Origin: Obrimoposthia wandeli | Lineage: Eukaryota | Assembly (NCBI GenBank): GCA_977020255.1 | Contig: CDROCS010000206.1 | Location: 1 to 64,000 of the forward strand | Direction of reading: 5' to 3' | Length of the DNA: 64,000 nt | In this document: positions 13,601 to 50,648 of the stretch, piece by piece | Layout: the number at the start of each line of letters is the position of its first letter | Position numbering within the stretch: the stretch's first letter is position 1 | Notes under the pieces: model-generated | What the model saw: the letters and a program-made list of their open reading frames with translations, nothing else | The model's database searches: none | Told to the model about the DNA's origin: nothing | Translations under genes and position numbers: made by a program

Positions 13601-15946
13601 CTTCTTGAGTAAATGAGGAAAATACAACAAGAAGATATTCAGGTAAAAAGAAATGAAACTTTTTCCAACTGGAAGGCTAAGGAGAATTTAACAGAAGAAT
13701 GCAAAAATATTGGATTTATCAAATTAAAAAAAAACTTAAACTCTACGATGATAACACGCTATTGAACAATATTTTACAGATTTAATTGCTACTTTCATGC
13801 TTACATAGAACGTTAATGAAATCCCCAAATATCTTTATAACTTGCAAGATACTGGGTTTATTACTATATGAAAGATAATTTCTTTTTGAAAAAGAATATT
13901 TCCAAGAAATAAAAAATGCGTAATAAAAGCGTTATTGTGTGCCAAAAGAAAAATAAGAAACAAGCAGAACAAAATAAATATGTCTTTATATAGTCCCAAA
14001 GACACAGATCAAATTTGTTGTCAATTGAAGTCAACACAAAGTAAGAGGAAAATCCTAAAAATTAAATACCAGTTGATAGTAAACGATCGATTTGGCGGCA
14101 AAATTGATATCTCAACAACTACAAACAAAGATGAAATGACAATTAAATTTAAGAAACCTAGATCAAAAAAAACGTAACTATTATTATATTGATTCAGTTC
14201 TTTGGCGTCTTACAGAAAAAATCTAAAAGCTAGATCTTGTCATTTTTCTATTGTAAAACATCAAAAAATCAAAATACTTTACACTGTGATACAGAAATTT
14301 TGAAGTCGGACTGCTAGTTTTCCTCTCACATTACAAAAATATAACAATTGGTTTTTAATAAATATTTGAAATTAGAGTTGAAACACTTCTTATGGAAGTC
14401 TCAGGTACATAATTCCTTTAGAGTGATAGCACTTGTTTGTATGGCCTATCCTTTATGTCTCCAAAACCCATCTGAAGATTAATCTATATATTAGCATGCC
14501 TCAATTTGTTTTAAATTGTTTTGCTTAACTGAGGGTTTGTGTGTATATATGTGTGTGATTGGATAAAATCATGTGGCTCATTTCGATGCCTAGAAGTATG
14601 CAGAAAAAAGTCTAATTCAAAATGATTTTAATTAAAATAATACTGCTATTTAATATAAATATAGCAAGAATGATAACTTAAAATAAATAAAACACGTAAA
14701 TATAAACTTTAAGTCAAAAAATACTAAAAACTTTAAAAGGGGTTGTGTGTAAAATGTGTCCTCTAACCTATGCTGATCCAGATGTTTCTGACTAAACAGA
14801 CTGGTTTTTTGTCGGCTGATTTATTTAAAAAACAAACAGGAAGGTTTCAGTTCATAAAGAGCTGGGTCCTAATTCAGGTTTAGCAGAATTTTGCAGAGTT
14901 TATTCTGACTAAGAGAAACGAGTCACGCTACAAGATAAATAAATATATACAATTGATTACAAAAATTAGTTTTTAATTTTAATGATCAACTATGCGCCGT
15001 GGTGAAATCGATACTCTTGTTATAACGTTGTCTTCCTTTGCGAGCTTGTCCTCCTTTAAGCGAACTTGTTCTCCTTTGCCGATTTTGTGTTTCTCGAGGT
15101 GCTCGTTACTTCTTCATTTTTTCCACATGTTGTTCTAGCGAGGTTTGACTTACATTGATTATGATATTCTTTTAATATATCAATTCTCTCGTCCAAACAG
15201 CCACACGATTAAATTTTGGATTTTCATTCGAAAAATTAAAATCCGCTGCTACTAAAATTCACTTTCCCTGTGTTGTGATGCTCAGATAACTCTATGTTAC
15301 TGAGTCAGCAGTCAACTGATATAAATTAGGCCCTAATTTTCTTTTGAGAAATAACTTCTGCACGTTCCTTTTTTCCATTTAATTTTAATTAAAAAATTTA
15401 ATATTCAGGGTTCTAAAATGACCTTGGCCGGGACTATAAATAAAGCCATTTTATTTGATTTATTTTCAGTAAACTCGTGCGTTTCTGGACCTCAACAAAA
15501 ATATTCTGTAACTAACAATAGTCGGGTTCCTCAAAAATCTGTCCACGAGCTTCAGTTTACGCAACATGTTCCACTGAAATTTAATCCAGGATCCATCATT
15601 TGAAAATCGAAACCAATACTTATGCCCAGCCAGCAGGTAGAAATGTCTGGAAATCGCGCTGTAAAAACTAAGAAAGATGATATTACATGGTGTTATTTCA
15701 CGTTATCAGTAGATATGTAGATTTAATAACCAAAAAGAAAAAAAAGAAAACTGTTAATAGGTAACTACTGAAAAGACAAAATTTGAGCAGGTATAAACAC
15801 TTATGTATGGTTAATAATGAACATAACAAATGTCTCATTTTGGTCGAATAATGAAGACGTGTTTAAAACAATTAGAAAATTTCATTCAGAAATTGACAAA
15901 AATGAAATAATGGTGATAGAGACTGCAAAAGAAAAAAAAAAATTGA

Positions 15947-16865: not shown

Positions 16866-18066
16866 GTATGTGTGTTACAAATCAAATTTAAATTTTTTTT
16901 TTTATAGTAAATGGGAGGCATGCCAAATTTTTAAATAGAAAAATTGAATGTCATGCTACTAACTGAATAAATAAAAAATGTTAATACAACAAGAAATAAT
17001 TTTTATATCGAAAATAATAACTACACAAAACGTCAAACTATGGTGAGATAATACTGTTATTAAAGAGTTGCTAGAGTAATGGACGAGGAATTACTAAATC
17101 GATCGTTTACTATCAACATATAATTAATTTTAGATTTTCCTTCATTTGTGTAGACTAAATCGACAACAATTTGAACAAAATTGATTTTGAATATATAAAG
17201 ATATATTTATTTTGTTCTGCCTGTTTCTATTTTTCTTTTGGCCCAATAAACGCTTTTTGACATGCATTATTTATTTCTTGAAATATTCCTTTCAAATAGA
17301 AATTATCTTTCATATAGTTATAAATTTGTAGCATTCTGTGTGACAAAATATATTTGTGAATTTCATTAGTTCTTCGGAGGTATGACCAGCCAAATCTGTA
17401 AAATATTGTTCAAAATAAAAGAGAGTTTAAGGGGAGTATAAGGGGAACTCTACAAAGTAGAGACAAGTCATAACTAGTCTTGGAGAGCGCCAGTCTTTGT
17501 AATGTTACTCGTTGTAGCTGCCGCCAGTCAGATAACACAGGATGATTTGGATCAATGTTATAGGGAAATGAATTAGTATTTCCTCCCACAAGCCGTACGT
17601 GGATGTCCACTTCAATGGACCCATATATTGTTTGTGATCAATGATGTTGACATAGACTCTTCCAAGATCTGATTTTCGACTTAGATTCATCCTACTGAGT
17701 TCCAAATTTGCCTTCTTGCTGTTGTCATATGTAGACTTTAATCAGTTTGATATCAACAATCTCGTTCTTGTATCGACCTCACGAGAACTGCGATCAGTTG
17801 TTGGTGATCGAGACAGGGATATGGATTTGGAAAGAGAGAAAAAATTGTCAGGCCGACTAGGAATGGGTTGTTGTTGTCCGCTTGTAGCAATTTGATTGGG
17901 CCGCGCCGAGATGTTGCCTCTATGGATGATGGAGGAGGATGATAGAGGAGATATGGTGGAGGATGACCAATTCTGCTAGTCAGAAGAGCTGAGTGGAAAA
18001 ATTCCAGCGAGATTAAAGCACTTCTTTATTTCCGCTCTGCCTATCAAAACATATATTTATTCTGCC

Positions 18067-18119
18067 GACTTCTTGACGAGACTGGAAAGGTGAAACTGGG
18101 TTTTTACCCCGTCGGAGGC
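18067..18119 (+). ncRNA. Degenerate type I hammerhead ribozyme (copy A)
   Basis: gacttc-TTGACGA-gactggaaaggt-GAAA-ctgggtttttaccccGTC-ggaggc. Same layout as the copy at 24029-24078, but the core C3 is T and stems I-III carry mismatches. Confidence 0.55.
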
Positions 18120-18412
18120 TGATGAAAGTTACCTCCACGATTGTTAGCATTTCGGTAATTTTAATTAAATTTCAATTTAAATTGACTAAAATCTTATTTA
18201 AATTAATTATTTATTTGACAAAACAAAACTTATCCTAGCTTTATTCAAAATTAGGATGTGCAATCTCATGTTGTTTTTGTATACAACACTTTATTACTGT
18301 CCACAGTTGCGTAACTATAAAAACTTTACAGAAAATTGTTCGGTGAAGGAAGTGAAGAAGGTGAAGAATGTGAAGGAAACGATGGTGATATTGTTAAATC
18401 AATTGTCATTGT

Positions 18413-18916
18413 TCATTTGTTCTGCTCCTCCAGGAATTGAGCCACCTGGTCCAAGGGCAGTATCGGGAAGCTGGGGAATCCCAGTAGAACTGCTGCGGCT
18501 GCTGGACCACGCCGAGGTGGGTATATATCAAAAGATTGGAACGCTGCGATTCTGTGGGTTGGGTCGATCTTGGGTGGCAAGCCATAACTCTCTAGCACGT
18601 CATATAGAGTGTCGGTCCCAACTGGAACGCCATACTTCCCGGGCTCGGTGCTGTGCGTTGCGACGACGCATTTGGCAGGTGGAACACTTACAGTGTTCTC
18701 CACCGATGCAGCTCGCGGTTGAACGTCTCCCCACCATTTAGCCTCAAACAGAGATTGTCTAATGGTTGAAGGAAGTTCGACACATTGGACAGGTTGGGGG
18801 GTATCTGGCCGTGATCTGGCCCAAATTTACAAGCACCGCTCGTGAAACCGGTGTGTGCAGTATTGGGGTACCACTGTCTGGCCTCGAAGACGTTTGAGGC
18901 AGATTGTTCAGGTCAT
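18413..18916 (-). pseudogene. RING-H2 finger ORF (interrupted) with C-terminal extension
   Basis: MT*TICLKRLRGQTVVPQYCTHRFHERCL*IWARSRPDTP then, after a frameshift in a C run, TCPMCRTSF. This gives C-x2-C...C-x-H-x-F-H-x2-C-x3-W...CPxCR if the first stop was Cys. The RING start frame continues into track ORF 18413..18703. Confidence 0.7.
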
Positions 18917-19000
18917 TCTGCATGAATATATTTGTTGTTTATGGGTTTAGTTTTTCCGTATGTTTATCATTTAAGTGTATATGATTAAAATCCTAGTATT

Positions 19001-19230
19001 TTAACTTATACTACTCGATTCAGGTTTGATTTTGATGTATTTGGTGAATTGTCTTCTGCATACAGGGCAACGAATATATCTTGGAGTGGGTTGATTGGCA
19101 TATGTTTTTATCCATTGCGAAAGACATTCCTCGTGGTATAAGTTATCGCAGGTATTGGGGTCTTGCTCTTTTAATCAATATCCCGTCAACATATTGTTTA
19201 TTCCTCAGGCATTCTAAATATATGACTACA
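19001..19230 (-). pseudogene. Second RING-H2-like finger ORF (interrupted)
   Basis: C(fs)VIYLECL...TCDNLYHEECLSQWIKTYANQPTPRYIRCPVCRRQF; two ligand positions altered and two frameshifts needed. Confidence 0.65.
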
Positions 19231-19518
19231 AATTAATTTAAACATTTTTTTAAAACATTATTTCTACTAATCGAGATTTCAGATCCAGTGGGATTGTTTC
19301 TTTCACTTTTTTTCTCTCGATGATCACACTTTGGTTTCTTTGTGTGGGTTTTCTAGATCTGATCTTGTTCCTTTTGACAGGTTGCCTAGATTTAATTTTG
19401 ATACCTATTCCATTGAACCTGCTCGTATTGTAGTTCAAATTTAGGAATTGTCAGTCAGATTTGCAGCTTGTGTGTTGAGTCAGTATTACTGATGCTGGTG
19501 TGCACAGTGTGTCATCTG

Positions 19519-22500
19519 TGTAACAACTATATTACGTAATCAAGTAATCCTATATAAGAGTGTGTAGATGTTACTTTAGTTTTGTCGTGTTTTATAATGT
19601 ATTTTCGTCTCGTATTGATTCGGTCTTACAAGCTATGCAGGAAAATAAAGAATATTGAAACGATGGCTTATAGAAAAACAGTAGTGGAGATCATGAAAAA
19701 GTATAATGGATCACAGAACATTATGGATTGGTTCCATAAATTCGAAATAATTTGCGATATGCAAAATGTGAAAGATAGAGCTTCTATATTATCAGTGATT
19801 TTTATTCATGAGGCCTTTACTGTATATAAAGAAGTTCTAGCATCAAGTAATGAATTATATGATCTGATAAAGAACAAATTTATTAAAATGTATGGTCTAA
19901 GAAATCAAGATCCAATTTAAAAATATTAAACAAACGGCTAATAAAAGAACAGAATAATGATGAACATGTATGTCATATGAAAATGCTATAATATAGCAGC
20001 TATATGAATCATCTGGTGATGTATTATTGCAACTATTTTTCACTAACCTTCCTGAAAATATTTTTAATGATTTACGCAGTCAAGATCCCAATACATTAGA
20101 AGAAGCAGTTAATATGGCTAGAGTACTTAATACAAATTCAAACCAGCTGCTTGGAACAATATCAATGCAACAAGAGTTGAGAAGAGATTATTTTTTATAT
20201 GCAACGATTCGAATCATATTGCTCATCTTTGTCCAAGCAAGAAAAATATAAAGTAATAAATTCTGACATCAATCAAAATATTGTAACGAAGTAGGGAATA
20301 TGCATACTGTGGACTCGTGTATGTTCCCAAAAACAATGTAAAATGAGGCTCTTGCAGGTAAACAATAAAGTTAGTAAATGTTTAATTGATTCGAGTTGTT
20401 CAATTACTATGGTACGTTGTCAAAGTATCAATGATAATGTTAAAATTACAATGATGAATGACTCTACTATAACTGCTAGTAAAAATACCACGACGATTGA
20501 GGTAATTAATATTGTTGTTATAATAGATTGTGTTATAACACCATAGGTATTATGAAATTATGAAATTATGATGCTATTCTAGGTATGAATGCTATTAATG
20601 TGTTAGGTGGAGTTGAGATATTTGAGTCAGCTGTTTTTGATTGTGAAAAAGAATCAAATTCCCTTTGCGTATTGGGACAAAATGTGGAATGTATTAATTG
20701 AACAAACTTCGTTGCTTAATTCGACGATTTTTATTTAAGTGTGGAATGGAAATGGAGTGATGAATCGCCTCAAAATATAAATGGAAGATGGTCTCGTTTC
20801 AATTCACAAAACCCTAAAGATAGTAAAGTTATAGGTATCATATATTAATGGATCGAAAAGAAATGGTTAGTAGCGTAGGACGATTCTAGCATTGTATAAT
20901 CGATAGGAACGATCCCGATTTTTGTAGTGATTCAACAAAACAAAGACAACCTCAGACCGGTTTTTGATTTTCATAGACTAAATGAATAAATTGATATTTA
21001 TACGGGTAAAGCTGCTGTATGCAGAAAAACTGAGAAAGTGGCGAGCAGCAACATCAAACTTCGCAATATAACTGCTAGTAAAAATACCACGACGATTGAG
21101 GTAATTAATATTGTTGTTATAATAGATTGTGTTATAACACCATAGGTATTATGAAATTATGAAATTATGATGCTATTCTAGGTATGAATGCTATTAATGT
21201 GTTAGGTGGAGTTGAGATATTTGAGTCAGCTGTTTTTGATTGTGAAAAATCAAATTCCTTTATTGGGACAAAAATGTGGAATGTTAATTGAAGACAAACT
21301 TCGTTGCTTGACGATTTTTATTTAAGTGTGGAATGGAAATGGAGTGATGAATCAAAATATAAATGGAAGATGGTCTCGTTTCAATTCACAAATAAAGATA
21401 GTAAAAGGGTATCATATATTAATGGATCAAAAGAAATGGTTAGTAGCTTTCTAGCACAGCGATTGGTTTAGTGATTCAACAAACAAAGACAACCTCAGTT
21501 TTTGATTTTCATAGACTAAATGAATAAATTGATATTTATACGGGTAAAGCTGCTGTATGCAGAAAGCTGAGAAAGTGGCGAGCAGCAACATAAACTTCGT
21601 CAGTGAAAATATCAAATTGTAAGTTACTTATTATCAAAAACTTCGATAATGAAAAGGCATACTGATTCGTATATTGATGACATTTTTGTCAACGAAGATT
21701 TTATTTCTGCAGAATTGGTTGAGAAACATATGAATCTACTTGGTATCAAAACAAAATCTATTGAGAGATCTACAAAATCTGATGCTCGTTTCCTTGGATT
21801 AAATGTCATGAAAGTTGAAACTGGATTGATTTGGAGGAGAGCACAAACTATTCAATTATGCGATAAGTATGAGCACGTTACTACATGAGAGCTTTATTCT
21901 ATATGTGATAAATTGATTGGAATATACACAGTTTTTTCATGGCTACGAATCTATTGCTCATATATTAAAAAATGTACAACGGGCCAATGGAGTGACCCCG
22001 TGTCAAGTTAAGTATGTCAAATGTTAACCGAAATGAAATTAAGTGAAACAAAATGATCCCGCTTTTGGTTTGTGGAGTACAAATGGAGTTCAAGAAGCCA
22101 CATTATGGTGTGATGGAAGTAACCTAGCATTGGGGGTCGTTTTAGAAGTAAACAGGAGTGTAATCGAAGATGCAACGTGGCTACGTAAACATGAGGACGA
22201 AAGGCATATCAACCTTGTAGAGTTATAGGCGGTCGTGAAAGAATCAAATTTAGCTTTAAATTGGAAATTTTCAAAGGTTAATGTTATATGAAATAGTCAA
22301 TCAGTCGTGTGTTGGGTTAAAGGCGTAATTTCATACGATCAAAAGGTTCATGTAAAATCAACGAGTGAAGTTTTTATCAAGAGGAGATTTTCGATTATTA
22401 GCGATATGATGAGCGAGTATGATTTGCAATTGTATATTACTTATGTTCCTTCCGCACGAAATAAAGCAGATATATTAACTATAATACCGGAAAGTTTGAA

Positions 22501-22735
22501 GTCGAAAGTCAAGATCCAAGGTGTATATAGCTCGGCGGTTCAATACAATGAAAAATTAGTTAAGAACATATCCATAATATGTGTCATGTTGGTACAAAGA
22601 AAACGAAGTATTTAGATGATAGTATGAATATTCCTTACAACGATAATGAAATCAGCGGAATAATAAGTTCTTGTAATATATGTCAATCAACAGATCCCAC
22701 TTCAAAAAAGTGGGAAAAAGTGTTCGTCCGTTAGT
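19519..22735 (+). mobile_element. Degenerate Ty3/Gypsy LTR retrotransposon (gag-pro-RT-RNaseH-partial integrase), 3'-truncated
   Basis: gag MDWFHKFEIICD and zinc knuckle ICNDSNHIAHLCP (~20200); protease LIDSSCSIT (20343); RT IPIFVV..LRPVFDFHRLNE and YIDDIFV (21660); RNase H WCDGSNLALGVVLE..HINLVEL (22043-22228); integrase HHCC-like CNICQS (~22670). Possible short 5' LTR TGTAAC...TTACA at 19519-19630 (tentative). Confidence 0.9.
20468..21599. repeat. Internal tandem duplication (~600-bp unit) in the Gypsy remnant
   Basis: 20468-21063 recurs at 21067-21599; the second copy has many 1-5 nt deletions and one larger one. Confidence 0.9.
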
Positions 22736-24028
22736 ACAATAATCACGGTGGATGTCTGTCTAGCATCATTGGGTTTTTTTACATGTCCATTCTGTCTTGT
22801 ATGTTTGATTCATAACTTTGGCTTCTGCTGTTTGTTGATTTCCGCTGTTTACATTGAGGCAAGCGACAGCTGCTGGATCAGTATTCAGTAACCTGAAATA
22901 TATGGTAATGAAATTCCATACGGTTTCAAGTTGTCTGTTCGTGACTATAATTTTGTCAAAAGTTTCCACATGCGTTCATCATCAGGTATTATTGTAGTCC
23001 TTGTTATGGTAATATGGATGATTCGTCTCCATTTGTATATGGCGATTCGGAGATGTAAGATATTTTCGTGATCTCGCATGATAAGTCGGTAGTATGGTGA
23101 GTGTTTTGGGATTTTCACCTTGATGTTACGTATAACGTATAATTCCAAGTCGGCATCTTCAATCTCTGAAGTCTGTAAGTGAATGTTTGCCAGATAATAT
23201 TTTTAGTCTGGGTATTTTCATGTATATAGCACGTATTTCCGCTTATCTTCATTAGTTTATAATGATCTCGTAACTGGCTTTAATTGTTCTAGCTTGCATG
23301 ACCAGTACAATGCCTATTATTTTACGTTTCATGACTTCTTTTTCTTCTGTCGGGTATCCTAAACTTCCGATAAAGTAAGGTCTTTCCTCGATACGTTCGT
23401 ATACTATCGGTTGATATATCGGTGCTGGCTTGTTCAAGAATGATGGTATTAGTAGATGTGTTTAGAATTTCTGTAGGTTCATTTGATCTGGTCGTCTTGA
23501 AGAATCTTGATGTTTCTTTTTCAATTTTACCTCGATTTTTGAACAAACCTCAAGATGAGAAATACCAATATTATACATCTGATAATCATGGATATAATCG
23601 GATTAGCTGATTCCGGCATACCATACACTATCACTTATTTTCCTCTACTCTTGATGGTATGTCTTGAATTTATGCGTGCTCTGGTACTTTACTCAGAAAC
23701 TTTATCAAACTTTACTTTGTCCATATGCGTATCCGTCGCATTTGACGATGTTAAAGTCATAATGTCCATTTATGAAGTCATTTTCGTTGCTGGTATTATG
23801 CACATCCGCCCTGTGCACTTGTTGGAAGTAGGGCGATATATCCGGTCTAACCCCCAACCGGGGGTACCACTGTCCATTAAAACCATGCATATGTGTGGAT
23901 TGAAATTTCACGCATGTGTGTTCAGTCTTAATGTTGGGTAATTAATTAAAATAATTAATTTTTGTCAATTTAATTTGACATTTAAAAATAATCTAAAATG
24001 CCCACAATTAGGGAGGTTTTCAAATTCA

Positions 24029-24078
24029 GCCTCCGACGGGGTGGTCCCGTTTCGCCTTGCCAGGCTCATCAGGAAGGC
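24029..24078 (-). ncRNA. Type I hammerhead ribozyme with intact catalytic core (copy B)
   Basis: Minus strand: GCCTTC (stem I) CTGATGA GCC-TGGCAA-GGC (stem II) GAAA CGGG-ACCAC-CCCG (stem III) TC, cleavage, GGAGGC (stem I'). All conserved core nucleotides are present; predicted cut after GUC, between 24035 and 24034. Confidence 0.85.
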
Positions 24079-25420
24079 GGCATGATAACAAGATGAAACA
24101 ATGTTTTTCCGCCCAGCAATAGCAGCAGATGCGGCGGCGGTCAACCCTTTCTCGGCCGGCGACGGGTCTGGTCCAGCTCTTCCGCCATCCTTCTCCACCG
24201 TCCTTCCCCGTGTTCCCCGTCATCCTAGTCGGCAGGCTGCAGATGACAATCTTCTTGATCGAAGAAAATCTACTGTGACTGTGTGTGCGGAGAAGAGTGC
24301 CCCAGTCCTGATGGTGGGCTCCTCCGAGAGCAGCAAGTCTCAGTGATGCTCAGGGCTGTGTGTGTGATCGAAACTGATCATGTGTCCCGCTACTTTGTTT
24401 TGTCACAGACTCTATGGATGGGACTACCATACAAGCCGGCCTTTGTGTGCGACACAGCCACTGCCCAGATTTGTTTCCCCTCTGCCCGCTGTCGTTACAA
24501 GGAAGAAATCAAAGAATATTGCATTCTATTGACAGGACGCGCTCACCTCCCCATCGATACTACCATACCCGGACCTCCCAGCAGAGCTGTTTATCTCTCT
24601 ACATTCGGAGATAACAAGCCATCATCCACAGCTGAAATTCCCCTGTCGCTATGGACTGCAGTATCTGCCACATACCAGATCGGACGGACCAGGATTCATT
24701 CCATTTCTTCCCCATAATCACTCTCTATCTCCCTCTGTCTATAGCACAAACAACTGCTGCATGACTGGTCTCTCTTTGACCACCGACGCTGTCTCCCTGT
24801 CGTATCTCAGTTAGTGTGGCCAGGCAACAATAACAGCGCTTATGCCACACTGCCTACCGTTTATCCAGCCGCTCCGATATCCGTGCACCTACCAAAGCCT
24901 GCTGTTGATGCTGACGCTCTTACGCCCATGTGTGTGTTCATGGTACCCGGTCCATCCAATAGCATCATCTACCTCTGTTGCAATCGGATGCAGCACCAAC
25001 ATAAGTTTTCCCCTCTCATCTAACAACGGAAGACTTCTTTCTTTTTCAATGTCGCCTATTCTGTCTGCATGTCGTAAACTTCTGCTCTCGTGTACAGCTA
25101 ACGCCATCTTTCTCCACGCTGCTGTCGCTCTCTTGCACTCTTTCAATAACATATTCCCTATGTCCTTCCTCTCAGACACAATCCGTGTGTGTCTGTGTTC
25201 ACTGACATTGATTGTGTGTGTATGTGTTTTTTGTGCTGCCTCAATGTGGTCAGAGAGACTGACGGGAGATGCACAAATGTCAAATTGACAAATGGATTTA
25301 CATTTAAATGCAGTTTTGTGAAAGAGATTTTCAGTGATTTCTACAAGAATAATTACTTCAACTAATTGAAAATTGTGAAATCTATTTGGAAAGATATTAA
25401 AATCTATATAAAAGCTATAA

Positions 25421-25650
25421 CTACAATTTACATTTATGCCAATTTGAACTATTTATGAAACTACAATTTACATTTATGCCAATTTGAACTATTTATGAAA
25501 CTACAATTTACATTTATGCCAATTTGAACTATTTATGAAACTACAATTTACATTTATGCCAATTTGAACTATTTATGAAACTACAATTTACATTTATGCC
25601 AATTTGATTCTATTTATGAAAATACAATTTATATTTGTACCAATTTGAAC
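25421..25650. repeat. 40-bp minisatellite, ~5.5 copies
   Basis: ctacaatttacatttatgccaatttgaactatttatgaaa at 25421, 25461, 25501, 25541, 25581 (1-2 mismatches) plus a degenerate copy at 25621; no spacers. Confidence 0.95.
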
Positions 25651-26219
25651 GACTGATCTTATTTATTAAAAACAATTTACGTTTGCAAAATATATAACAT
25701 TAATACCAAAAATATTTCGCCCCTTTTTTATATGAAATTAAAATTTTGTTTTTATATCTTCTTAAATTCATTGAGACGTTTACTCTTCCAGGATAACTTG
25801 TGTTTTTGATTGACTCAGAAAACAAGTACTGTATTTATTAACGTTTGATTTAAAATTTATTTATTTTAGAGTATAGTGGGGATTTGTCAACATAATTTCA
25901 TTATAAAAGCTAGAGACTCGTCGTCAACCACTAAATAAGAAAAATACTGCTCTCAGAGTGGTATGTTTAAAGTTCTTGTTTAAAACCATGTTTCGTTTGT
26001 TATTATACTTTTGTTAATCGTGTGTTTTTAGTTGACTATTTACAGAAATACCGTCGTTTTGGTACCATTGATTCAAGGGCATTTTCCCACAGGTCAGTAT
26101 AGTATTTTAATTTTCGAAAGATATTTACCATATTTCAATTCTTCTAGATCCACTTTTTTAGCTATAAATTTCCAGAAAATATCAACACTCTTTTCTGAAT
26201 GTGACACACATCTCAGTGG

Positions 26220-26512
26220 ATGTCGAAAAGAGCCAATCCAGATTTAGCTAAGACCAATGAGAATGTGAGACAGATCACACCAGCAAAAAAGAAGATCTGT
26301 CACAGTATGGAGCAGAGTGGCAATATTACTATGTCGCCAGATGCAGCAATGAGGCTGGGATCCGTGCTGGAATTGTGGTTGGGGCTGAGTATCGCGGTGG
26401 CTGTATTCGGGTTCGGCGCCAATGTTGTCTTTGGTGTTATGACGCGGTTAACGGTGCGCTTGTGGCGCCGTACGACTTACATGTTGCTGATAACGGTTAT
26501 GCTCGCCGACAG
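26220..26512 (+). CDS. Class A (rhodopsin-like) GPCR, exon 1 (N-terminus, TM1, start of TM2)
   Basis: LSIAVAVFGFGANVVF (TM1 G..AN) and RRTTYMLLITVMLAD (TM2 L..D), then donor AG|GTATGG at 26512/26513 (phase 2). Confidence 0.75.
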
Positions 26513-26969
26513 GTATGGGCTACTAATTGTAACGTGAAAAGCTGTTCTGATAGCGCAACTAACTAAGTTCTCGTTACGTTTCTATTACGATTTCTATCTT
26601 TATCTTCAAATACTCTTACCTGTACATGTCCACAGTCTAAATTTAGTACACTAAAAGAAACCGTATTAAAATATCAAAAATGTAAAAACCATATTATATA
26701 TTTGATTTTTAATGTTAAATTAGGGTTTTCTTCCTTAAATATATGAAAAAATATAAATTAAATTTATTTGTTTTAAAACATAGCTATGAAAAAAGTCTGA
26801 GTAAATTATTAATAAACTGAGCATTAATGGGTTAACCACAAATGTATTTGATACGATTCAAATAAACTAAAGCTTTGATATTTTCTTGACTAACTCTACA
26901 TAAATATAATATTAAAATTAAATTTAAACAATGTCAAATAGTCTATTTTGACTTTTAAAAACTGGCTTT

Positions 26970-27572
26970 AGTAGTATATAGTGTCGGTACTAAACCAAAG
27001 AAACCTACCCCCTGGGAAGGCTAGGTTCCTTTGATTTAGTCGTTAAAATGTCTAAAAATTGTTTAAATTGGCTTAAAATGACTCAAAATGACTCAAATAT
27101 TTTCCTACAACTCCAAGTCAGGTCTGGTGTTGTATGCAGAATTTTGAGACTTGACAAATCACGCATACTACGCCAACGGTAATAGGTCCCCTCCATGGGG
27201 GGTACTTTTACTGCAAAACCATATTAGTGTTGTATGCAGGATTTCGAGACTTGACCTACATTTGGTCTGAAAATCACGCATACTACACCAACGATAATAG
27301 GTACCTTTACTGCAAAACTATTTTGGTGTTGAAAGTGTGATTTCAAGACCATTTTCAAATATCGCGCTAAATATCTTGTCGTTTAAAACAAAAGTATATT
27401 AAGTAGATTTTAAGCGGCCAAAGTCTCTCCTGCAGAGCCTCCTAAGAGGGGAGCCCTGCAAGACTTGGCAGCACCTTTGGCAAAGATTATATATATATAT
27501 ATATATATATTACTTTTGTTTATAGTTAACCTTTAAAGAATAATAAAATGAATAATCATTTATTCATATGAT
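26970..27572. repeat. Left TIR of Polinton-2 (~600 bp)
   Basis: Reverse complement of 32689-33222 apart from indels. Confidence 0.95.
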
Positions 27573-27728
27573 AAATAACATAAAACTTTCTTATGTCCCT
27601 CAGTAATTCTCCAAATAGGCTTCTGTCTCCCGAGTCTATCAACTTTGAATCCTTGAATTTGAATAAATAAAATCCAATATTTGCTTTTGGGAAATTCTTC
27701 TTCAGAGTAAGTATATATTCCTTTAAAC
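27560..27728 (-). pseudogene. Polinton-2 gene X, 3' half (split by the hAT insertion)
   Basis: FKGIYTYSEEEFPKSKYWILFIQIQGFKVDRLGRQKPIWRITEGHKKVLCYLSYE* continues in frame from 29097-29295 when the hAT is removed; matches ISIQGYKIKRDGCLKPIWKFTEG in ORF 61428..61955. Confidence 0.85.
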
Positions 27729-29096
27729 CAGGGGTGGGCAAACTACGGCCCGCGGGCCGCATGCGGCCCACCAAGTTATATACGCATGTTATTTTGGGAC
27801 AAAAAGAAATTGTGAAGAAATTGAATAAATGATGATCTTGAGATTTTTTATTTTTGAAAAATCTTTAATGTTATAAACTGTTTTCTTTTAACTTTTATTG
27901 AAATTTAAATTTATGTTAAAATAATTTAAATTGACATTGACATTTCATTTGTTTATATAAACAAAATTTGAATTGATGTTAAAATAATTTAAATTGAAAT
28001 ATACATTTATAAACTTTACCCAAAATGAGTTATTCGAATCTATCTAAGAAGCGAAAAATTGTAGACGAATGCAGTGTTTTTAACAAAGAGTGGAGTGAAA
28101 TGTATTTCTTTACTGACATTGGAGTTAAAGCTGTATGTTTGATTTGTCATGAAACAGTTGCTGTGTTCAAGGAATACAATTTGAAACGGCACTTTCAAAC
28201 GAAGCACGCTAGCTTTGGACAAAATTTATCAAAGCAAGAACTGCAAAAGAAAGCAACTGATCTGGAAAAAAGTTTGAAGCAACAGCAAACATTGTTTAAG
28301 AAAACATTATCTTCACAAAGTAATGCGACAAAGGCAAGTTTTATGTTGGCCAATAAAATTGCAAAGCAAAACAAGTCATTTGCAGAAGCAGAATTTATTA
28401 AAGATTGCATGGTTGATGCTGTCCGTGTTGTGTGTCCTGAAGTTAAGTCAAAAATAGAAGCTATATATCTGTCTCGAAGAACAATTGTTCGTCGCATAGA
28501 TGCAATTGCAGTGAAGATTCAAGAACAGCTGTTAACAGCCAGTGATAGTTTCCAGTGGTTTTATATTGCTTTAGATGAGAGTACTGATATTCAGGATACT
28601 GCTCAGTTACTCATTTACATCAGAGGAATTGGCAAAAACTTTGAGATTACAGAGGAATTGTTATCTATGGAGTCACTCAAAGACACAGTTACTGGAAAAG
28701 ATATGTACACCAGTGTCATTAACAGTCTAATCAGGTCTGGATTAAGCCAGTATAAACTAGCAAGTATTACAACTGATGGTGCTCCTTCACTCACACGTAA
28801 ACATTCTGGCCTTGTAAAGTTGATGAATTATAAAATCAAAGAAGATTTTCCACTGCACAGTGCGTTGTCTTTTCATTGTATTATACATCAAGAAAACCTC
28901 TGTAAGTCTTCTTTAAAACTAAAACATGTTATGGATCCAGTGGTGCATGCAGTGAATTCAATAAGAGCGCGGGGACTGAAACACAGGCAATTCCGAAGTT
29001 TCTTGGAAGACAACGAGGCAGATTTTACTGATGTGCTGTACCACACAAATGTCCGCTGGTTAAGCATGGGAAAGGTACTAAAGAGGGTGTGTTAAA
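27729..29096 (+). mobile_element. hAT (Buster/SPIN-Charlie type) DNA transposon, 5' half only
   Basis: Left end CAGGGGTGGGCAAACTACGGCCCGCGGGCCGCATGCGGCCC, preceded by CTTTAAAC (nnnTAnnn, the Buster-type target). No right TIR; TTTAAAC recurs at the right junction (29098-29104). Confidence 0.9.
28025..29095 (+). CDS. hAT transposase (GTF2IRD2/SPIN-like), C-terminally truncated, 356 aa
   Basis: N-terminal zinc finger CLIC...KRHFQTKH, first catalytic motif ALDESTDIQDTAQL, ITTDGAP, FHCIIHQE and VRWLS; stops at the junction with Polinton DNA. Confidence 0.92.
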   Translation: MSYSNLSKKRKIVDECSVFNKEWSEMYFFTDIGVKAVCLICHETVAVFKEYNLKRHFQTKHASFGQNLSKQELQKKATDLEKSLKQQQTLFKKTLSSQSNATKASFMLANKIAKQNKSFAEAEFIKDCMVDAVRVVCPEVKSKIEAIYLSRRTIVRRIDAIAVKIQEQLLTASDSFQWFYIALDESTDIQDTAQLLIYIRGIGKNFEITEELLSMESLKDTVTGKDMYTSVINSLIRSGLSQYKLASITTDGAPSLTRKHSGLVKLMNYKIKEDFPLHSALSFHCIIHQENLCKSSLKLKHVMDPVVHAVNSIRARGLKHRQFRSFLEDNEADFTDVLYHTNVRWLSMGKVLKRVC

Positions 29097-29295
29097 GTTT
29101 AAACAGATGTTCATCAGCTTTAATAAAAGCACTAAAGTTTTCAATTTTGATATCTAATTTCATTCTTCTGAAAATATAATGGATATTATTAACATCATTT
29201 TGATGGATCCTCGAGATGACATAGTCAAACTTGGACTTTGTTAGCATAACAGGGTATTTTAATCCAAAGGTAACAGGCATCTTGAGAAAATTCAT
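29097..29295 (-). pseudogene. Polinton-2 gene X, 5' half
   Basis: MNFLKMPV...VMLTKSKFDYVIS...IKADEHLFK; homologous to ORFs 61428..61955 and 50262..50648. The frame is open a further ~70 nt upstream. Confidence 0.85.
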
Positions 29296-29382
29296 TGTAT
29301 AACTGAAATAATATTCTTTGAATAGTTCTTCTGTTTCTTCATTAAAAATATCCTGTTTGACAACGATTTCAATAGTACAGAT

Positions 29383-29866
29383 TTGAATGCATTAGTTAAA
29401 TACGTTATATCTAAATGTAATCATATTTTTAGCATGTTTTATATTGAAAAAGATAAAATCATTAAATTCAAGTTAAAATCTAATATTTCAAGTATAATGT
29501 TTAATAACCGTATAGCATTTGTACTGGGTCTTAATAAAACAGAATTTACAGGTGACGGTAAAGGTATTCCTCAATTAATATGTGAGTTTGATCACATGAA
29601 CCTGTATACCAATTTGATAGAGTCTATAAATGTTTGTGGTGTAAAAGTACCATTGTTAAAATCCATTTGGTTCGATAAAAACAAAAAATATGGTGATACC
29701 GCAAATAATAAATCATTAGACTAATGTATCTTCCTGTAATATCAACATATATTTCCAATATTGAAGTAGATATTCGTAATAATAGTGGAACACCGATAAA
29801 CTTTGATCATAACACAAAAACTAGTTTAACACTACATTTCCGAAAAGTTATGTATAAACAAAATTA
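29383..29866 (+). pseudogene. Polinton-2 minor capsid (penton-like) protein, C-terminal fragment
   Basis: LYTNLIESINVCGVKVPLLKSIW then (fs) MYLPV..NIEVDIRNNSG..TSLTLHFRK; aligns with the C-terminus of ORF 53454..54467. The N-terminus is missing. Confidence 0.85.
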
Positions 29867-29886
29867 AACAATGTTAATCGTTAATA

Positions 29887-30270
29887 ATGTCTCTATTTGA
29901 TGTGTATAGTACAACTCAAACAGGTGGTGAACTACCTTACTTTGTGGGAAAACAATATGGTTCAGGTTGGTTGAAAGTTTTGGAGCGAATTGCGTTTCCT
30001 ATTCTATCACGTTTAGGACGAATTGGTGCAAAAACACTTACAAATGTAGTAATGAACGATAAACCAATTTTAAGACAACTAAAATCTAATGCAATGAGTG
30101 AAGTACCAGGTTTGTTGCCTGAAGCAACAAAAGCTGCTACTCAACTAATGACTGCAATAAAGAAAAGTCGAAAACGACCAGCACAAATTCCTGTTGAAAT
30201 GAAAGAAGAAGTACAGAAAGGTAGTGGTAGTATAAACAAACGTAGAAAAATAGGAACCATATTTGAGTAA
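29887..30270 (+). CDS. Polinton-2 PZ-like conserved small protein
   Basis: QTGGELPYFVGKQYGSGWLKVLERIAFP; homologous to 54505 and 35588. Confidence 0.8.
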   Translation: MSLFDVYSTTQTGGELPYFVGKQYGSGWLKVLERIAFPILSRLGRIGAKTLTNVVMNDKPILRQLKSNAMSEVPGLLPEATKAATQLMTAIKKSRKRPAQIPVEMKEEVQKGSGSINKRRKIGTIFE

Positions 30271-30273
30271 GAA

Positions 30274-31513
30274 ATGGCATGTGCAAAATCTGAACTGTGT
30301 TTATTTGATCGTCCACTACCTCAAATTGCTATAGAAAATGAATGTTTTGAGAATATTTACCCGGTTAATAATATTACCGGAAGTAATATTAATACAATCG
30401 AGTTTAATATCCATTTGAGTGAAACAGAATATTTAGATTTGAATGATTCTCTATTATATTTGAAAATAAAGTTTTAAAAAATAATGGAACAAACAGTTAT
30501 ATTGACATGGTGGAAGCAGATAAATTTATACCAACAAATTTCTTTTTCCATAGACTATTTAAAGATGTGCAAATTCACCTGAATAATACTAGTATTGAAG
30601 GAGAAAATGGTAATTATGCTCACAAGGCTTTGATTGAATGTATGCTTAATTATAGCAAAGATACGAAAGTGGTTCATTAGATGGAATTGGTTATGATAGT
30701 AATGAGAATGTACGAAAAGGGTGGATTGAAAAATCTAGTGATTTTGAGTTGTGCAGTTCAATTCGATCGGATTTTCTTGAACAACCCAAATATATGCTCC
30801 CCGGTATGAATGTCAGTATAAAATTGATTATTTCCAATGCAAACATGACACTAAAAACAGGTACAACTCATTTTAGAATAAAATTTTTAGATACTAAAAT
30901 GAAAGTTAGACTTGTACGAGTTGAACCATCAGTTTTGATCGCTCATAATGTTGGTTTGAAAACTCAAAATGCGGTTTATCCATATAGACGTGGAAAAGTG
31001 GTACATTATTCACTACCTAAAGGCTCTACAACATTTTATAAATCACCTATTTTTGATGATGAGCAATTACCGAAATTTGTTTTGATTACATTTCAACATA
31101 ATCTTAAAATTGACGGGTCTAGTGAAACAGACACTTCAGAATTTGATCATTGTAATGTCAGTTCAATTTCCCTTAGTAGAAACACTGATTTTGTTGAAAC
31201 GTACACTGCAAACTTTGAAAAAGATGAATACATGTTTGCGTATATTCAATCACTGGTTAGAAACATGGGATTATTGGATAAGAATATAAACATAGATATA
31301 AAATCTGAAGATTTTAAGGAACGTTACCCAATTTTTAAATTCGTATTGGACCCTGACTTTGATATAAATCAACATCAATTACCGAGACAAGGTAATCTAA
31401 GACTTGACGTAAAGTTTCTCAAAGGATTGGCACAGCCGTCAAACATTATAATTTACGGTGTTTTCGATACTGAAATTCAAGTAACTAAAGGCAAACGTGC
31501 AATTGTTGGATGA
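30274..31513 (+). pseudogene. Polinton-2 major capsid protein (double jelly-roll), frameshifted
   Basis: KSELCLFDRPLPQ N-terminal motif, IRSDFLEQPKYMLPG, QNAVYP, LPKFVLI and GNLRLDVKF; frameshifts near 30475 and 30680. Confidence 0.92.
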
Positions 31514-31584
31514 AGTAAGTGTTTATTGATCTTAATAATAATTGATGTAGTTCTAAACAGGTTAATACTGCGGGAATTGAATTA

Positions 31585-31887
31585 TTGGAACATAAATTCA
31601 AAGGAGTGTTTCCTATGGATAAAATACCAACTCTAAAACCTGGCAGATATGTTGTAAATACTCATACAAGTAATTTAACTGGTGAACACTGGATTGCGCT
31701 ATTCGTGAGACGTGATAGTGTACACGTATTCGATCCTATAGGAATTTATTATCCATCAGCACTCATCAGACATGTGGAAACTCAAGGGAAACGTCATGTA
31801 TTCTATAATAAAACTCGTATGCAAAACCCACTAACTACTAATTGTGGTCCTTTATGTCTTTTATGGTTGTTTCATCAAGTTTCTTAA
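31585..31887 (+). CDS. Polinton-2 adenain-like cysteine protease
   Basis: VNTHTSNLTGEHWIA (His), VFDP (Asp), MQNPLTTNCG (Gln/Cys). Confidence 0.9.
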   Translation: MEHKFKGVFPMDKIPTLKPGRYVVNTHTSNLTGEHWIALFVRRDSVHVFDPIGIYYPSALIRHVETQGKRHVFYNKTRMQNPLTTNCGPLCLLWLFHQVS

Positions 31888-32119
31888 TACATTTTAAGAT
31901 TTTAAACGACTTATTTTATAAAAGTTAGATTTAGATTTTTTTTTTCAATTTTTCTTACATTTTTAGAATCTGATATTTATTTAGAAATATAAAATATTTA
32001 AACTTATAATTTGATAATTTAGAATCGTTAGAATTTTACAAAACGATTCTAAATAATTTAAAAAATTTTTACACTTGCAAATAAATTTGTTATTTCCAAA
32101 GACATGAAAATAATAGCAA

Positions 32120-32229
32120 ACAATACCATCAGCTTTACCTCTAAAGTTGCTTTAAAATGTTTTGACGATAAAAGGAAATGGGTTAGTAAGAATAAAAGCC
32201 TTGTTTACGGTCATTTTAATTTAACTTAA
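32120..32229 (+). pseudogene. Polinton-2 pPolB C-terminal remnant
   Basis: YHQLY (fs) SKVALKCFDDKRKWVSKNKSLVYGH matches NHQLYT..KTALSSSDDKRYWIEKNRSRAYG at the end of Polinton-1 pPolB. Confidence 0.75.
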
Positions 32230-32688
32230 TAATTTTTAAATAAGATATATAGTTTTGTTATTGTTGTTATTGTTATTTTAATATCATCATCATTTGTACA
32301 CACACTCATTCACTTGTATATATTAATACAACTTTTATGTTTAATCGCTTTATTTATTATATAAGATTATTTTGATTAGTTGACCAATTATATTGAAGTT
32401 AGGTTTTTATGTAATCGAAACACTTTAGTTTTAAAATCATTTCATCATTATGACTCTAAGTACTTTAGACATGTTATGTGCTCTTCAGATCAACCTTAAA
32501 AAAACATTTTTAAACTATATACATCTCAATATTTTTCATTATATTGTGCTCCAGAACATTTCGAATTAAGGATAATGGAACTTTACTAATATCATCAACG
32601 TAAGATTTTTATTTTTAAAAATATTTAATGTACATTTAAAAGTTATGGGAGATATTCAATACTACTATCATCATGAGACGCCGAGTTG

Positions 32689-33222
32689 TAATCATATGAA
32701 TAAATGATTAATTGATTTTATTATTATTTAAAGGTTAACTATAAACAAAAGTAATATATATATAATCTTTGCCAAAGGTGCTGTGCGGTCTAGCAGGGCT
32801 CCCCTCTTAGGAGGCTCTGCAAGGGAGACTTTGGCCGCTTAAAATTTACTTAATATACTTTTGTTTTAAACGACAAGATATTTAGCGCGATATTTGAAAA
32901 TGGTCTTGAAATCACGCTTTCAACGTCAAAATAGTTTTGCAGTAAAGGTACCTATTACCGTTGGCGTAGTATGCGTGATTTGTCAAGTCTCAAAATCCTG
33001 CATACAACACCAGACCTGACTTGGAGTTGTAGGAAAATATTTGAGTCATTTTGAGTCATTTTAAGCCAATTTGAACAATTTTTAGACATTTTAACGACAT
33101 TCTGTCTAAAAAATGACTATATATAGACATTTTAAGCCACTATAGTGTTGGGACTAAATCAAAGGAACCTAGCCTCCCCGGGGGTAGATTTCTTTGGTTT
33201 AGTACCGACACTACATACTACT
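32689..33222. repeat. Right TIR of Polinton-2
   Basis: Reverse complement of 26970-27572. Confidence 0.95.
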
Positions 33223-33949: not shown

Positions 33950-36900
33950 AGCTATTAAAATCATGTTTGCTAATATTATACCTGAAAATATGCAAACTGA
34001 CGAAGGTAAAGAATTTTACAACTCTCACGTAAAGTTTTTATCAAACAATGTAAATCATTATTCCATATTTTCTAGTTGAAAAATTTAATAGAACTCTAAG
34101 AGATCGATTAATAAAGTAATTTTCAAAACAAAGTAATAAACAGTGGGTTGATGTTTTACCGAAAATAATTTATACATACAATCATTCTATGCATTCTAGC
34201 TTAGATGGCAAAATACCTGTTTATATTTCGAGTAAAAATGCAATAGAAATTTGGATGATTATAAATATAAAAGAAACCATCAAAAAACCAAAATATAAAG
34301 TTGGTGATTATGTTCAAATATCTAAAATTAGTATAACACCATCTGTTAAAAATATTAAGCAAAATTGGAGTGATGAGGATTTTCAAATACATGAAATTAA
34401 TAACAAACAAAATTAAAATATTGAAAGTTTTATGTGATGATAATGACAAAGTTTACAAGGTAAATTGTATCATCAGGAAATATAAGTGATTGATTAACCT
34501 ACCTTATAAAGAATTCAAGATATTTTAGAGAGCTAGGGGCACTGAAAGAATAAACCCTATCTAGTAAAAGGGCATGGGTATATTAAACCAGATTGGATTT
34601 TAACAACACAAATAGAATGGAAGATTTTTACATGGTAATACCCAGTTCTCTAAATTCTAGATCTGATAATAATGATAGCAAGTTTATGGTTGATTTGGAA
34701 AATCCAATAGAATTACCTTGAAATTGGGAAATGGATGTAACTGAATTCACTATTAATTATTCTCCAATATCTATTCAAAGTAAAATTAAATTTTAGTATT
34801 TTGAAAAAAGAATTTTAGATACTCCGATTAATGTAACTTTGAAACTTATATATGGAGAGTTTAGTATTGAAGAAATAACTCCCGGCCATGATTTCACTGT
34901 TGGATTGACTGATGAATATAAAATCCGAATAACACAAAATGAAAAGGCTTATAAAAACAATGAATTTAAAATATTTGTATCAAACATAGTATTGCTGATT
35001 TATATGGTATGCCCAATGTTGAAGTCGAGGATGGAATATATCTTGAAAAAACTGCCAACAAATATTTAAATTTAGCTGTTTTAAAGTTTAAAATATTTTT
35101 TAAGGTCAAGAGAGACGTATCATCTGATTATATTTTGGAAAGTGATTATTGATTTCCAATGTTCACTCATTATGCACACATTTCTACTAAATGAGTTATT
35201 TGTATTTGAATTAAAACTTAAAATTACAAATATTATTATAGACAAATCATTAGCAATAATTATTTGGTTTTCAGATAATGTATTTGAAAAAATTGACGAC
35301 TTTAAAGCATCTACTGTACCAAAGTTATCAAATGCGTGTAATGAAATTTATATATATATACTGGTTTAATAGAACTGATACTTGTTGGTGGTATTCGAGT
35401 TCCTTTGTTTAAGTTTATTTGGGCATAAATATAGCGATAATATACATATCCCAATTGATCAACCAATGTATTTGCATGTTTCTTCGTAATTTATAAACAA
35501 TATAGAATTTAATATTAGAGATGATTCTAGAAAACTAGTCAGATTTGTATACGGATCTAAAACAAGTCTAACTATATATTTTAAGCAATGGACTTATATA
35601 TAGTTGAAACATTTAGCAAAAGTCAGCAGGGAGGTGAACTTCTATATTTCACGGATAATAAATATGGTGGTGGCGGTTGGTATTCAATGATTCGTAAAAT
35701 AGCTTTTCCCATGGTTAAAAAACTTTTTATTAAAGATTCAAAAAGTGCTGCGAATGGTGCAAATAAAACATTAGCTAGTGCTGCGGGTTCTGCAATCCAA
35801 TCGCTAAAGCGAAATAAATGCTACCTTGATTGAGATATGATGATGTACGGAGTTTGCAACATCTTAATAAACAAATAAATAAAAATTCAAGACAGTCAAA
35901 CAAACGTAACAGCTTGGTAATGGACTTAAACTTAAACACGGTAAATGAGTATAAACAAACGCTTCAAGAGAACCCTATTTGACTAATTATGGCTTGTGGA
36001 TAAAGTGAGTTGTGTATTTTTGATAGGGCGTTGCTTCAGGGTGTTGTTGAAAACGGTGCGTTTGAAAAGATTTTTCCTGTAAATTCAATTACTGGTAGCA
36101 ATTTAGTTGATTCAGAATTTAATATTCAAGATTGTGATGATAGTTATTTAGATTTGAATGATACGTTGCTATATGTAAAAGTTAAAGCCACTACAGCCAA
36201 AAGTAGTAGTTTGGAAAAAATTGACGTAAGAGCCAATAATTATATGTTTCATACTCTTTTTAAAGATGTATTACTAAGTTTGAATAATGTGAAGATTGAA
36301 GGTGGTCAAAACACATATTGTTAATAGGCAATACTCGATACTCTTTTGAAATTTAGCCCTGATACGAAAAAGATAAACCTACACGGTATTGGTTATAATT
36401 TGACATACTCGTAAAGGATATATGGCAAAGTCTTAAGCTTTTGAAATGTATAGTTCTTTGCGATTAGAATTTTTGACCAACTGAAATATCTTCTACCTGG
36501 AGTTAATATTAATTTACGGATGCTAAGAAATGATGCTGTTCATTCATTAATTACAAATGTTACTAATAATAAACCAATATTGCAAATTTTAGATGCTAGA
36601 TTATATGTTAGACATACAAAGGTTGAAAACTTTGTATTTATTGGTCATCAGATATGTTTACAAACTCAGAATGCAATTCGTAAAACTCGATTTGTTAATT
36701 ATTCAATTCCAATTGGCGCCATTTCATTGTTTAAAGATCAGCTATTTGGAGATTATGCATTACCAAAATCCATTGTTGTATGTTTTCAAACAACATCTGA
36801 ATTATATGGGATTTTTAATACTGATGCATGAACCTTTTACCACTTTAAAGTTTATGATATAATTTTAACAAAAAATAATGATTATTGAGAAGCATACACT

Positions 36901-45969: not shown

Positions 45970-46044
45970 TTATGTTAAAATTTATATTAAATCAAAAATA
46001 AATAAGAAAGAAGTCAGAGAATAATACAAAATTAAACACATTTA

Positions 46045-49737: not shown

Positions 49738-49806
49738 TTTGTTCTAAAATAAAAAAAAAAATATATATATATATATAAATACAATAATTTAATTATTTTA
49801 CTTACA

Positions 49807-50337: not shown

Positions 50338-50648
50338 CTATGCCAGTGACATTATCGAAAACTTCGTACAATTACCGAGTCTCTGATTTTGACGACAAAG
50401 ACATTCAACAATTCAATGAAGTCGTCAAATATTTGAAAATTGACATTGAACTTGAGAATGAGGGTATATTTATGCGCGGAGATAAGTGCAAATTTTATGA
50501 TTGTTCCGGAACAAAGATTTCGGATATTCAAGAAGATGGAAGAAGTTGGATGCTCGAAATAAAAATTCTCGGATATAAAATAAATAAAAAGAATGAAACA
50601 ACTCTCATCTGGAGGATTCACACAGCGACCGAATATTTTGATGTTTAA
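50262..50648 (+). CDS. Polinton-1 gene X, unknown function (128 aa)
   Basis: PVTLSKTSYNY..SD....DIQQFN and LEIKILGYKI...LIWRI align with the gene X copies at 27560-29295 and 61428-61955. Confidence 0.75.
   Translation: MSYKAVQKYYEYDMFFLASAWIHPMTMPVTLSKTSYNYRVSDFDDKDIQQFNEVVKYLKIDIELENEGIFMRGDKCKFYDCSGTKISDIQEDGRSWMLEIKILGYKINKKNETTLIWRIHTATEYFDV

Follow-up and report, generated by a model that had tools for sequence, protein, structure and literature searches.

A type I hammerhead ribozyme in an apparently abundant repeat module of Obrimoposthia wandeli, possibly the end of a Penelope-like retroelement family

We analyzed one 64-kb stretch of Obrimoposthia wandeli DNA (hereafter the window), which carries a type I hammerhead motif with a perfect core, recognized by sequence inspection, on its minus strand at 24078-24029. 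The motif lies in a 150-bp module that appears very abundant in the genome, judging from short contigs of one sample. We give an about even chance to the reading that this module is the ribozyme-bearing end (pseudo-LTR, pLTR) of an abundant Penelope-like retroelement (PLE) family, most copies of which are short and without a reverse transcriptase (RT) of their own. The locus in the window is an old, nested, decayed site.

The hammerhead motif and its predicted cut site

The earlier note on this DNA had placed a hammerhead at 24029..24078, and descriptor, folding and covariance model all recovered an intact type I motif there, on the minus strand. The conserved core elements (CUGANGA, GAAA and NUH) are all present in 24078-24029, and the minimum-energy structure of this 50-mer is exactly a type I hammerhead (-19.4 kcal/mol), with three helices of which helix I is open-ended. 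Stem I has 6 bp including one G-U, stem II is predicted to have 4 bp and a 4-nt loop (pair probabilities 0.98-1.0), and stem III is predicted to have 5 bp and a 5-nt loop, with the core unpaired; in the covariance-model alignment all pairs are standard. Stems I and III are as first described, down to the single G-U, while stem II has 4 bp, not 3. C17 falls at 24035, so that the cut is predicted between 24035 and 24034, matching the RNA ends at 24034/24035 that had been proposed. One unusual point is the 5-bp helix III, which would suit the ribozyme to cleavage as a monomer.

The type I descriptor matched one site in 64 kb and none in 200 block-shuffled windows. A covariance model built from 18 phage and bacterial motifs scored the site at 47.3 bits (E 1.2e-11); among its 24 matches, 18064-18122 scored 22.3 bits and the remaining 22 reached at most 14.4 bits, the score of the best unrelated match. 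The motifs for this model were fetched by a pattern made of the core and stem III letters, which returned 23 viral and 26 genome matches. Training kept 17 viral motifs (six identical or near-identical ones were left out) and one genome match, and excluded the other 25 genome matches, most of which were without stems I or II. Since the pattern was taken from the motif's own core and stem III, only stems I and II are independent and the rest of the score is circular. These two stems covary strongly in the training set, with double changes at 9 of 15 pairs.

Rfam gave no match at the gathering score anywhere in the 64-kb window. Relaxing the threshold to E<=10 within 23800-24300 gave six matches, including a partial Hammerhead_3 (20.6 bits against a cut-off of 48.5, E 0.083). 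Hammerhead_1, the model by which the earlier note had proposed to check the motif, appeared neither among these six nor at the gathering score. Folding z-scores of the motif region were non-significant (-0.80, -0.86 and -0.37), and the predicted probability of stem I fell to 0.02 with 30 nt of downstream sequence added, or to 0.0 with 60 nt upstream, as other folds won. The hammerhead motif is real.

The same stem geometry occurs in type I hammerheads of phage gene blocks, and 22 of the 23 viral pattern matches have 5-6 stem I pairs. The phage loci share no flank homology with the module (of 69 loci, nhmmer matched one, and only in its core, and tblastn none), and by sequence the likeness to phage hammerheads is likely convergence. 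Long-helix-III type I hammerheads occur in phage contigs and one bacterial bin, several of them closely followed by ATG.

The module, its inverted twin and its abundance

Blastn and the covariance model revealed a second, inverted copy of the motif that the earlier note had missed. Module copy 1 (23939..24088, minus strand, delimited by blastn and contigs) consists of the hammerhead and 96 nt past the cut, made up of a hairpin followed by AT-rich palindromes. With the ribozyme region as query, blastn found one other copy in the window, copy 2 (18057..18209, plus strand, 74.7% over 158 nt), which is inverted and faces copy 1, the two pointing inward, toward each other. Copy 2 contains a decayed hammerhead (18067..18119, plus strand), identified by folding and by the covariance model (22.3 bits, E 4e-4), in which core position 3 is changed, stems I and II have one mismatch each and stem III has a bulge; from its sequence it is probably inactive. 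Homology between the copies stops 96 nt past the cut-site position in both.

Folding and copy comparison place a 5-bp hairpin with a 13-nt loop directly after the cut site (24012..24034, minus strand), its arms kept and its loop changed in copy 2 compared with copy 1. This hairpin is predicted to compete with stem I by capturing the stem I 3' strand. Folding of the 285 nt that follow the cut is more favorable than in shuffled sequences (z about -3, 30 shuffles). Loop 3 is variable: copies 1 and 2 differ in it, and a variant contig end from run X2, at 24040, combines a retained stem III with yet another loop.

No tandem array of the module occurs within the 64-kb window, as the earlier note had stated. 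At the tested flanks of this old locus, whose boundaries are uncertain, we found no direct repeat of at least 8 bp that might be a target-site duplication. There is no run of telomeric repeats behind the ribozyme, the hexamer presumed to be the telomeric unit occurring once in copy 1 and not in copy 2. Of the loci matched by a pattern drawn from the shared 3' half (18 from metagenomes, 2 viral), none contained a hammerhead core.

To gauge depth, contigs from four public runs of one sample, which may be the source sample, were aligned on 17000-26900 at 80% likeness, with the bins at 25937-26598 as baseline (in run X4 one of the two bins was used, the other being 0.01). Relative to this single-copy baseline, the ribozyme bin (23951-24281) reached 5691, 3504, 4128 and 3379 in the four runs, the next bin downstream 631, 723, 473 and 401, the second bin downstream 828, 216, 597 and 583, and the bin of a downstream RING-H2 remnant (RING1) 2079, 707, 1811 and 1649, values that we read only as "very abundant", as summed contig depth is not copy number and is inflated by fragmentation. 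In run X1, dividing by the baseline gave about 10-27-fold for the upstream flank of copy 1 and 3-26-fold for the rest of the cassette between the modules.

The family boundary lies close to the ribozyme on its upstream side. Among the best 24 of 2,499 loose contig ends, ends gather at 24081, three bases before helix I, with 28, 31 and 12 contigs in three of the four runs, and the sequence beyond 24081 is dissimilar among family contigs (agreement 0.54-0.60). One module subfamily reaches upstream to 24159, and the deep stretch spans about 23620-24159. The fall in depth from thousands-fold to about 10-27-fold indicates that most copies share no upstream block. This divergence at 24081 and the drop upstream speak against the proposal that the hammerhead separates co-transcribed multi-ORF blocks.

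The upstream flank of copy 1 (24089..25936) is about 10-27-fold deep in contigs and gave no family match in profile searches; it is GC-rich to 25290 and stop-poor on the plus strand, with one 187-codon frame on the minus strand. Its least-stopped frame is opposite in strand to the ribozyme and contains 5 stops over 400 codons, a count as low as in 14 of 2000 shuffles; this lends no support to co-transcription. The upstream flank of copy 2 (17400..18056) is also stop-poor on the strand opposite its ribozyme (59 of 2000 shuffles as low). DNA likeness between the two flanks is weak (11 of 1000 shuffles as high), and the two outward frames have no protein similarity (E 0.46). Near the outer end of the copy 1 flank is a 40-bp tandem repeat (25419-25650, 5.8 copies), and 48 bp inside the 187-codon minus frame (25013-25060, a multiple of three) are skipped by contigs in all four runs. 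Beyond the copy 2 flank, the bin at 17000-17330 is about 1,000-fold deep and represents a separate abundant repeat, with an inverted repeat pair at 13891-13995 and 17189-17292.

The cassette between the modules and other content of the window

The decayed cassette between the modules measures 2,454 bp without a nested insertion. Its right half (22721..23938, minus strand), directly downstream of the intact ribozyme, contains short broken frames without family match; paralogues of this half are about 83% identical in contigs, and the bins at 23289-23950 stand at 200-830-fold. The left half (18210..19445, minus strand) is joined to the right half in contigs, where, among the best 15 of 168 joints, 19341-19445 connects to 22721-22742 in at least two of the four runs, with differing fillers. 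These joints bypass 19446-22720 and show that interval to be a later insertion. It is a decayed fragment of an LTR-type retrotransposon that splits the cassette (19446..22720, plus strand; DUF7047 E 3e-8, weak SCAN, contig joints) and lies outside the hammerhead family. By eye, its translation includes what we take to be an RNase H and an integrase zinc finger. Within the fragment, 183 bp are duplicated with 100% identity (20468/21067), and a right-hand end is missing.

The cassette's only recognizable coding content is two RING-H2 remnants on the minus strand, each frameshifted and with stops. Remnant 1 (19050..19213; zf-RING_2 E 1.9e-5, 25.3 bits) lies in the bin at 700-2,100-fold and remnant 2 (18780..18915; zf-RING_2 E 1.4e-5, 25.7 bits) has low depth, both matches falling just below the curated cut-off of 27.3 bits. 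Both remnants point the same way as the intact ribozyme and, discounting the nested element, follow it at a distance of 1.4-1.9 kb. After remnant 2 is a 137-codon open frame (18413..18826, minus strand) with no family and no usable fold, of which contigs contain a diverged paralogue. Apart from the RING remnants, ORFs flanking the ribozyme had no family match. A homologue search with three frames, in databases of longer proteins, gave nothing at E<=0.001, and Atlas searches gave no usable match. PHROGs returned a weak match of unknown function for 1 of 20 frames, and a PDB sequence search gave weak RING matches only, or none. Single-sequence folds were poor (pLDDT 34.9 and 57.4), with no fold-search match at E<=0.001, and relatives were likewise absent from two peptide scans of viral contigs. 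Whether the cassette travels with the module is about evenly balanced.

Several candidate features in and around the cassette were rejected. A match among representative proteins, to a 6,841-aa repeat protein, was spurious, with no tblastn match to the region. A third RING near 23860 was suggested by a 14-bp identity with remnant 2 that proved non-significant (126 of 500 shuffles). The stretch near 22750-22920 resembles what we assume to be the RT-endonuclease linker of Penelope elements; we do not claim it, as no minus frame there has a Pfam match. Sequence comparison ruled out that the two halves of the cassette form an inverted duplication.

The earlier note had reported no RT nearby, and RT and GIY-YIG went undetected in the frames that we searched. 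Six frames of 17000-25500 contained no RT, GIY-YIG or PLE-type domain, and neither RT nor GIY-YIG was found in 48 short read-through pieces, in 211 frames of at least 48 aa elsewhere or in 36 ORFs; 45100-57600 was searched for RT through its long ORFs only. The RT of the nested LTR-type element escaped these scans too, which shows how insensitive they are to decayed genes and leaves the RT negative weak. RT-less type I hammerheads, lone or on opposite strands, are usual in truncated Penelope-like copies (PMC4209133), and the absent RT is thus no pointer to a new polycistronic element.

The rest of the window (about 30% G+C overall) contains other genes and mobile elements. Exons of a MutS-family gene extend over 7 kb on the minus strand (2824-9527; MutS_I E 5.9e-8, MutS_III E 1.4e-5); this gene is presumably MSH6-like and marks the host as an intron-bearing eukaryote, probably an invertebrate. 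A Polinton/Maverick-like element (45147-57545 and 63410-64000) has terminal inverted repeats of 99-bp units, and its long ORFs include a packaging-type ATPase, an integrase with a chromo-like end, an endonuclease VII domain in a 955-aa ORF and a TBP-like match. A short Polinton-like unit (26970-33222) has 94-98% terminal inverted repeats and an adenain-like protease remnant, with a hAT-type (Spin-doc zinc finger) ORF inserted at 28013-29095, and a third paralogous block lies at about 34000-37500.

Interpretation of the module

We favor, with the even chance given above, the reading of the module as the end of a Penelope-like family. In a minus-strand transcript, the ribozyme would cut at 24035/24034 as a monomer, by means of its 5-bp helix III, during transcription. 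Cleavage would precede the capture of the stem I 3' strand by the downstream hairpin, which would then act as a shut-off. Cutting would trim or release the element RNA, and this RNA would be copied in trans by a Penelope-type RT whose gene lies at another place in the genome, with a start about 100 nt beyond the cut. The job of the ribozyme would accordingly be end-processing of element RNA, not the cutting of a message between two gene blocks.

This reading draws on the extreme depth of the module in all four runs of one sample, the loose ends three bases before helix I, a loop 3 that varies while stem III is kept, in the X2 variant and in copy 2, and a shared sequence that stops 96 nt past the cut in both copies. 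A type I hammerhead thus sits inside an abundant, dispersed terminal repeat, abundance here being contig depth in one sample. In the available text of PMC4209133 and PMC11167929, hammerheads of PLE pLTRs are likewise of type I, very abundant, variable and mostly single motifs, with opposite-strand pairs, and their shared sequence also ends about 100 nt past the cut. For the anole Poseidon element, the available part of PMC11167929 places the start of reverse transcription at 111-118 nt of the ORF and the cut at +26, which by subtraction puts the starts 85-92 nt past the cut. Truncated PLEs are described as leaving single motifs genome-wide and pairs on opposite strands with spacings of 100-700 bp, with much variation in sequence (PMC4209133, available text). 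For Adineta, palindromes within pLTRs, solo copies of pLTRs and the capture of host genes or unrelated DNA between them have been reported (PMC3846280, available text).

Other features fit a Penelope-like family less well. The frames searched yielded no RT or GIY-YIG and the tested flanks no target-site duplication of at least 8 bp. Inverted repeats of PLEs are mostly head-to-head (PMC3846280, as far as its available text goes), unlike the inward-facing pair seen here; neither a direct partial tandem nor a head-to-head inverted arrangement occurs at the one locus in the window. Helix III has 5 bp and a variable loop, while metazoan PLE hammerheads are minimal or have a small palindromic helix III, large and monomer-active ones being described in fungal and protist PLEs (PMC4209133, available text). 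A helix III that is missing or a palindrome of 1-2 bp, the dimer-dependent minimal type of metazoan PLEs, was not what we found; the 6-bp helix I and 5-bp helix III of the module instead resemble the fungal and protist PLE and phage variants. In the one PLE tested in vitro, cleavage was dispensable for insertion, according to the available part of PMC11167929. The family evidence, moreover, comes entirely from short contigs of one sample and their best-supported alignments. The module works like a pLTR, but differs from PLE pLTRs in that no RT or GIY-YIG ORF was found with it and the pair faces inward, and it is a candidate rather than an established PLE member.

Another close parallel is offered by Penelope-mobilized host genes of Adineta vaga, which, in the available text of PMC3846280, also comprise RT-less coding DNA between terminal-repeat modules, with several paralogues. 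There, two direct pLTRs enclose the gene, accompanied by an additional inverted pLTR and an 8-bp target-site duplication, whereas here we see two inward-facing modules only, 75% alike, with no duplication found. The word "RING" has no occurrences in the main text of PMC3846280.

An alternative that overlaps with the Penelope-end reading, tentative and in our view rather improbable, is that the module stands at the head of, or punctuates, a long Terminon-like element with several ORFs and RING-H2 cargo, in which the ribozyme would cut ahead of the cassette and the uncapped product might be translated; this narrows the proposal of the earlier note. In its favor, the RING remnants follow the ribozyme in its orientation at 1.4-1.9 kb, and depth stays high behind the ribozyme (bins at 400-720-fold and 200-830-fold) and in the RING1 bin (700-2,100-fold). 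Contigs also link the two halves of the cassette without the nested element, through fillers of differing length, which implies several paralogues with the cassette unbroken. Terminons, the giant Athena elements of bdelloids, combine hammerheads with several co-oriented accessory ORFs (PMC6431247 and PMC5072296, available text), and hammerhead cleavage has led to low-level cap-independent translation in reporters (PMC13725137, available text). A weak further likeness is that a long predicted helix upstream could be equivalent to the Terminon coiled-coil ORF. Yet no contig among the alignments listed bridges ribozyme and RING, most of the cassette is only 3-26-fold deep, and the upstream flank is not common to most copies. 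We found no Athena RT, no run of telomeric repeats and no head-to-tail chain in the window, and the second module is oppositely oriented. The reverse-complement telomeric repeats that directly follow Terminon hammerheads were not seen behind either copy (one presumed hexamer in copy 1, none in copy 2), and RING cargo falls outside the Terminon ORF list in the reviewed text of PMC6431247 and PMC5072296.

A polycistronic element RNA, as the earlier note had proposed, is a claim of which one part holds: the motif does belong to a mobile-element family with co-oriented RING-H2 remnants downstream, whereas cutting between gene blocks is not borne out. Cutting of a polycistronic RNA is supported only in part, since most copies share no upstream block.

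It is unlikely that the module is instead part of a dispersed non-LTR retrozyme monomer, with tandem masters elsewhere that give rise to small circular RNAs and with the RING cassette as an unrelated neighbor. In size the deep stretch (about 23620-24159) matches a retrozyme, its G+C is low, and the 285-nt segment past the cut is more stably folded than its shuffled versions (z about -3). Animal non-LTR retrozymes are similarly low-G+C, very abundant, protein-less repeats with a non-minimal type I motif; in the available texts, canonical animal type I hammerheads are mostly found in such repeats (PMC7229834), and monomers are dispersed genome-wide (bioRxiv 10.64898/2026.07.22.740005). Unlike retrozymes, the module is non-tandem in the window, where no head-to-tail hammerhead units were seen, has a long helix III and is followed by coding remnants. 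No go-back joint falls at the module among the best 15 of 168 joints, and upstream sequences are diverse among family contigs. A stable helix III would also remove the need for dimers, which counts against a retrozyme.

We consider it very improbable that the opposite-strand ribozymes are what is left of an ambisense circular RNA replicon that integrated and fossilized, or that they mark the ends of some unknown inverted-repeat element. Such an origin would account for hammerheads on both strands, for the opposite-strand frames with few stops that run outward from each ribozyme (as few in 14 and 59 of 2000 shuffles) and for the weak resemblance between the upstream flanks as DNA (11 of 1000). 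It fits poorly with outward frames that are dissimilar as proteins (E 0.46), with the lack of any polymerase or capsid match in the searched frames, and with a module that is far deeper than either flank and has no target-site duplication that we could find. The least probable reading is a chance match or assembly artefact, to which the missing Rfam gathering match, the non-significant folding z-scores and the alternative folds in longer contexts might point, and which has against it the absence of descriptor matches in 200 shuffled windows, the 47.3 bits from a separately trained model, the homologous second copy and the presence of the stretch in public runs (which may be from the source sample).

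Abundant type I hammerheads in animal repeats are already known, and the motif alone is ordinary. A long helix III in a probable animal, a conserved competing hairpin, an inward pair and abundant RING-H2 neighbors were not found in print, and the literature searched, which left most subscription journals uncovered, likewise held no ribozyme-headed RING-H2 ubiquitin-ligase retroelement. We regard as doubtful, though worth stating, the more specific proposal of an abundant RT-less family in which a monomer-type, long-helix-III hammerhead with a shut-off hairpin heads a RING-H2 E3 cassette, trans-amplified to hundreds or thousands of copies and possibly translated from its 5'-OH end.

The role of hammerheads in PLEs is described as an open question in the available text of PMC8557442 and PMC11167929. 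If confirmed, a monomer-type ribozyme with a competing hairpin and many natural variants would make this role testable by covariation and cleavage assays. If the RING-H2 cassette travels with the module, this would be a case of ribozyme-linked retro-amplification of ubiquitin-ligase genes, and RING-H2 amplification, if true, would be a way for gene families to expand or for host defence to be interfered with.
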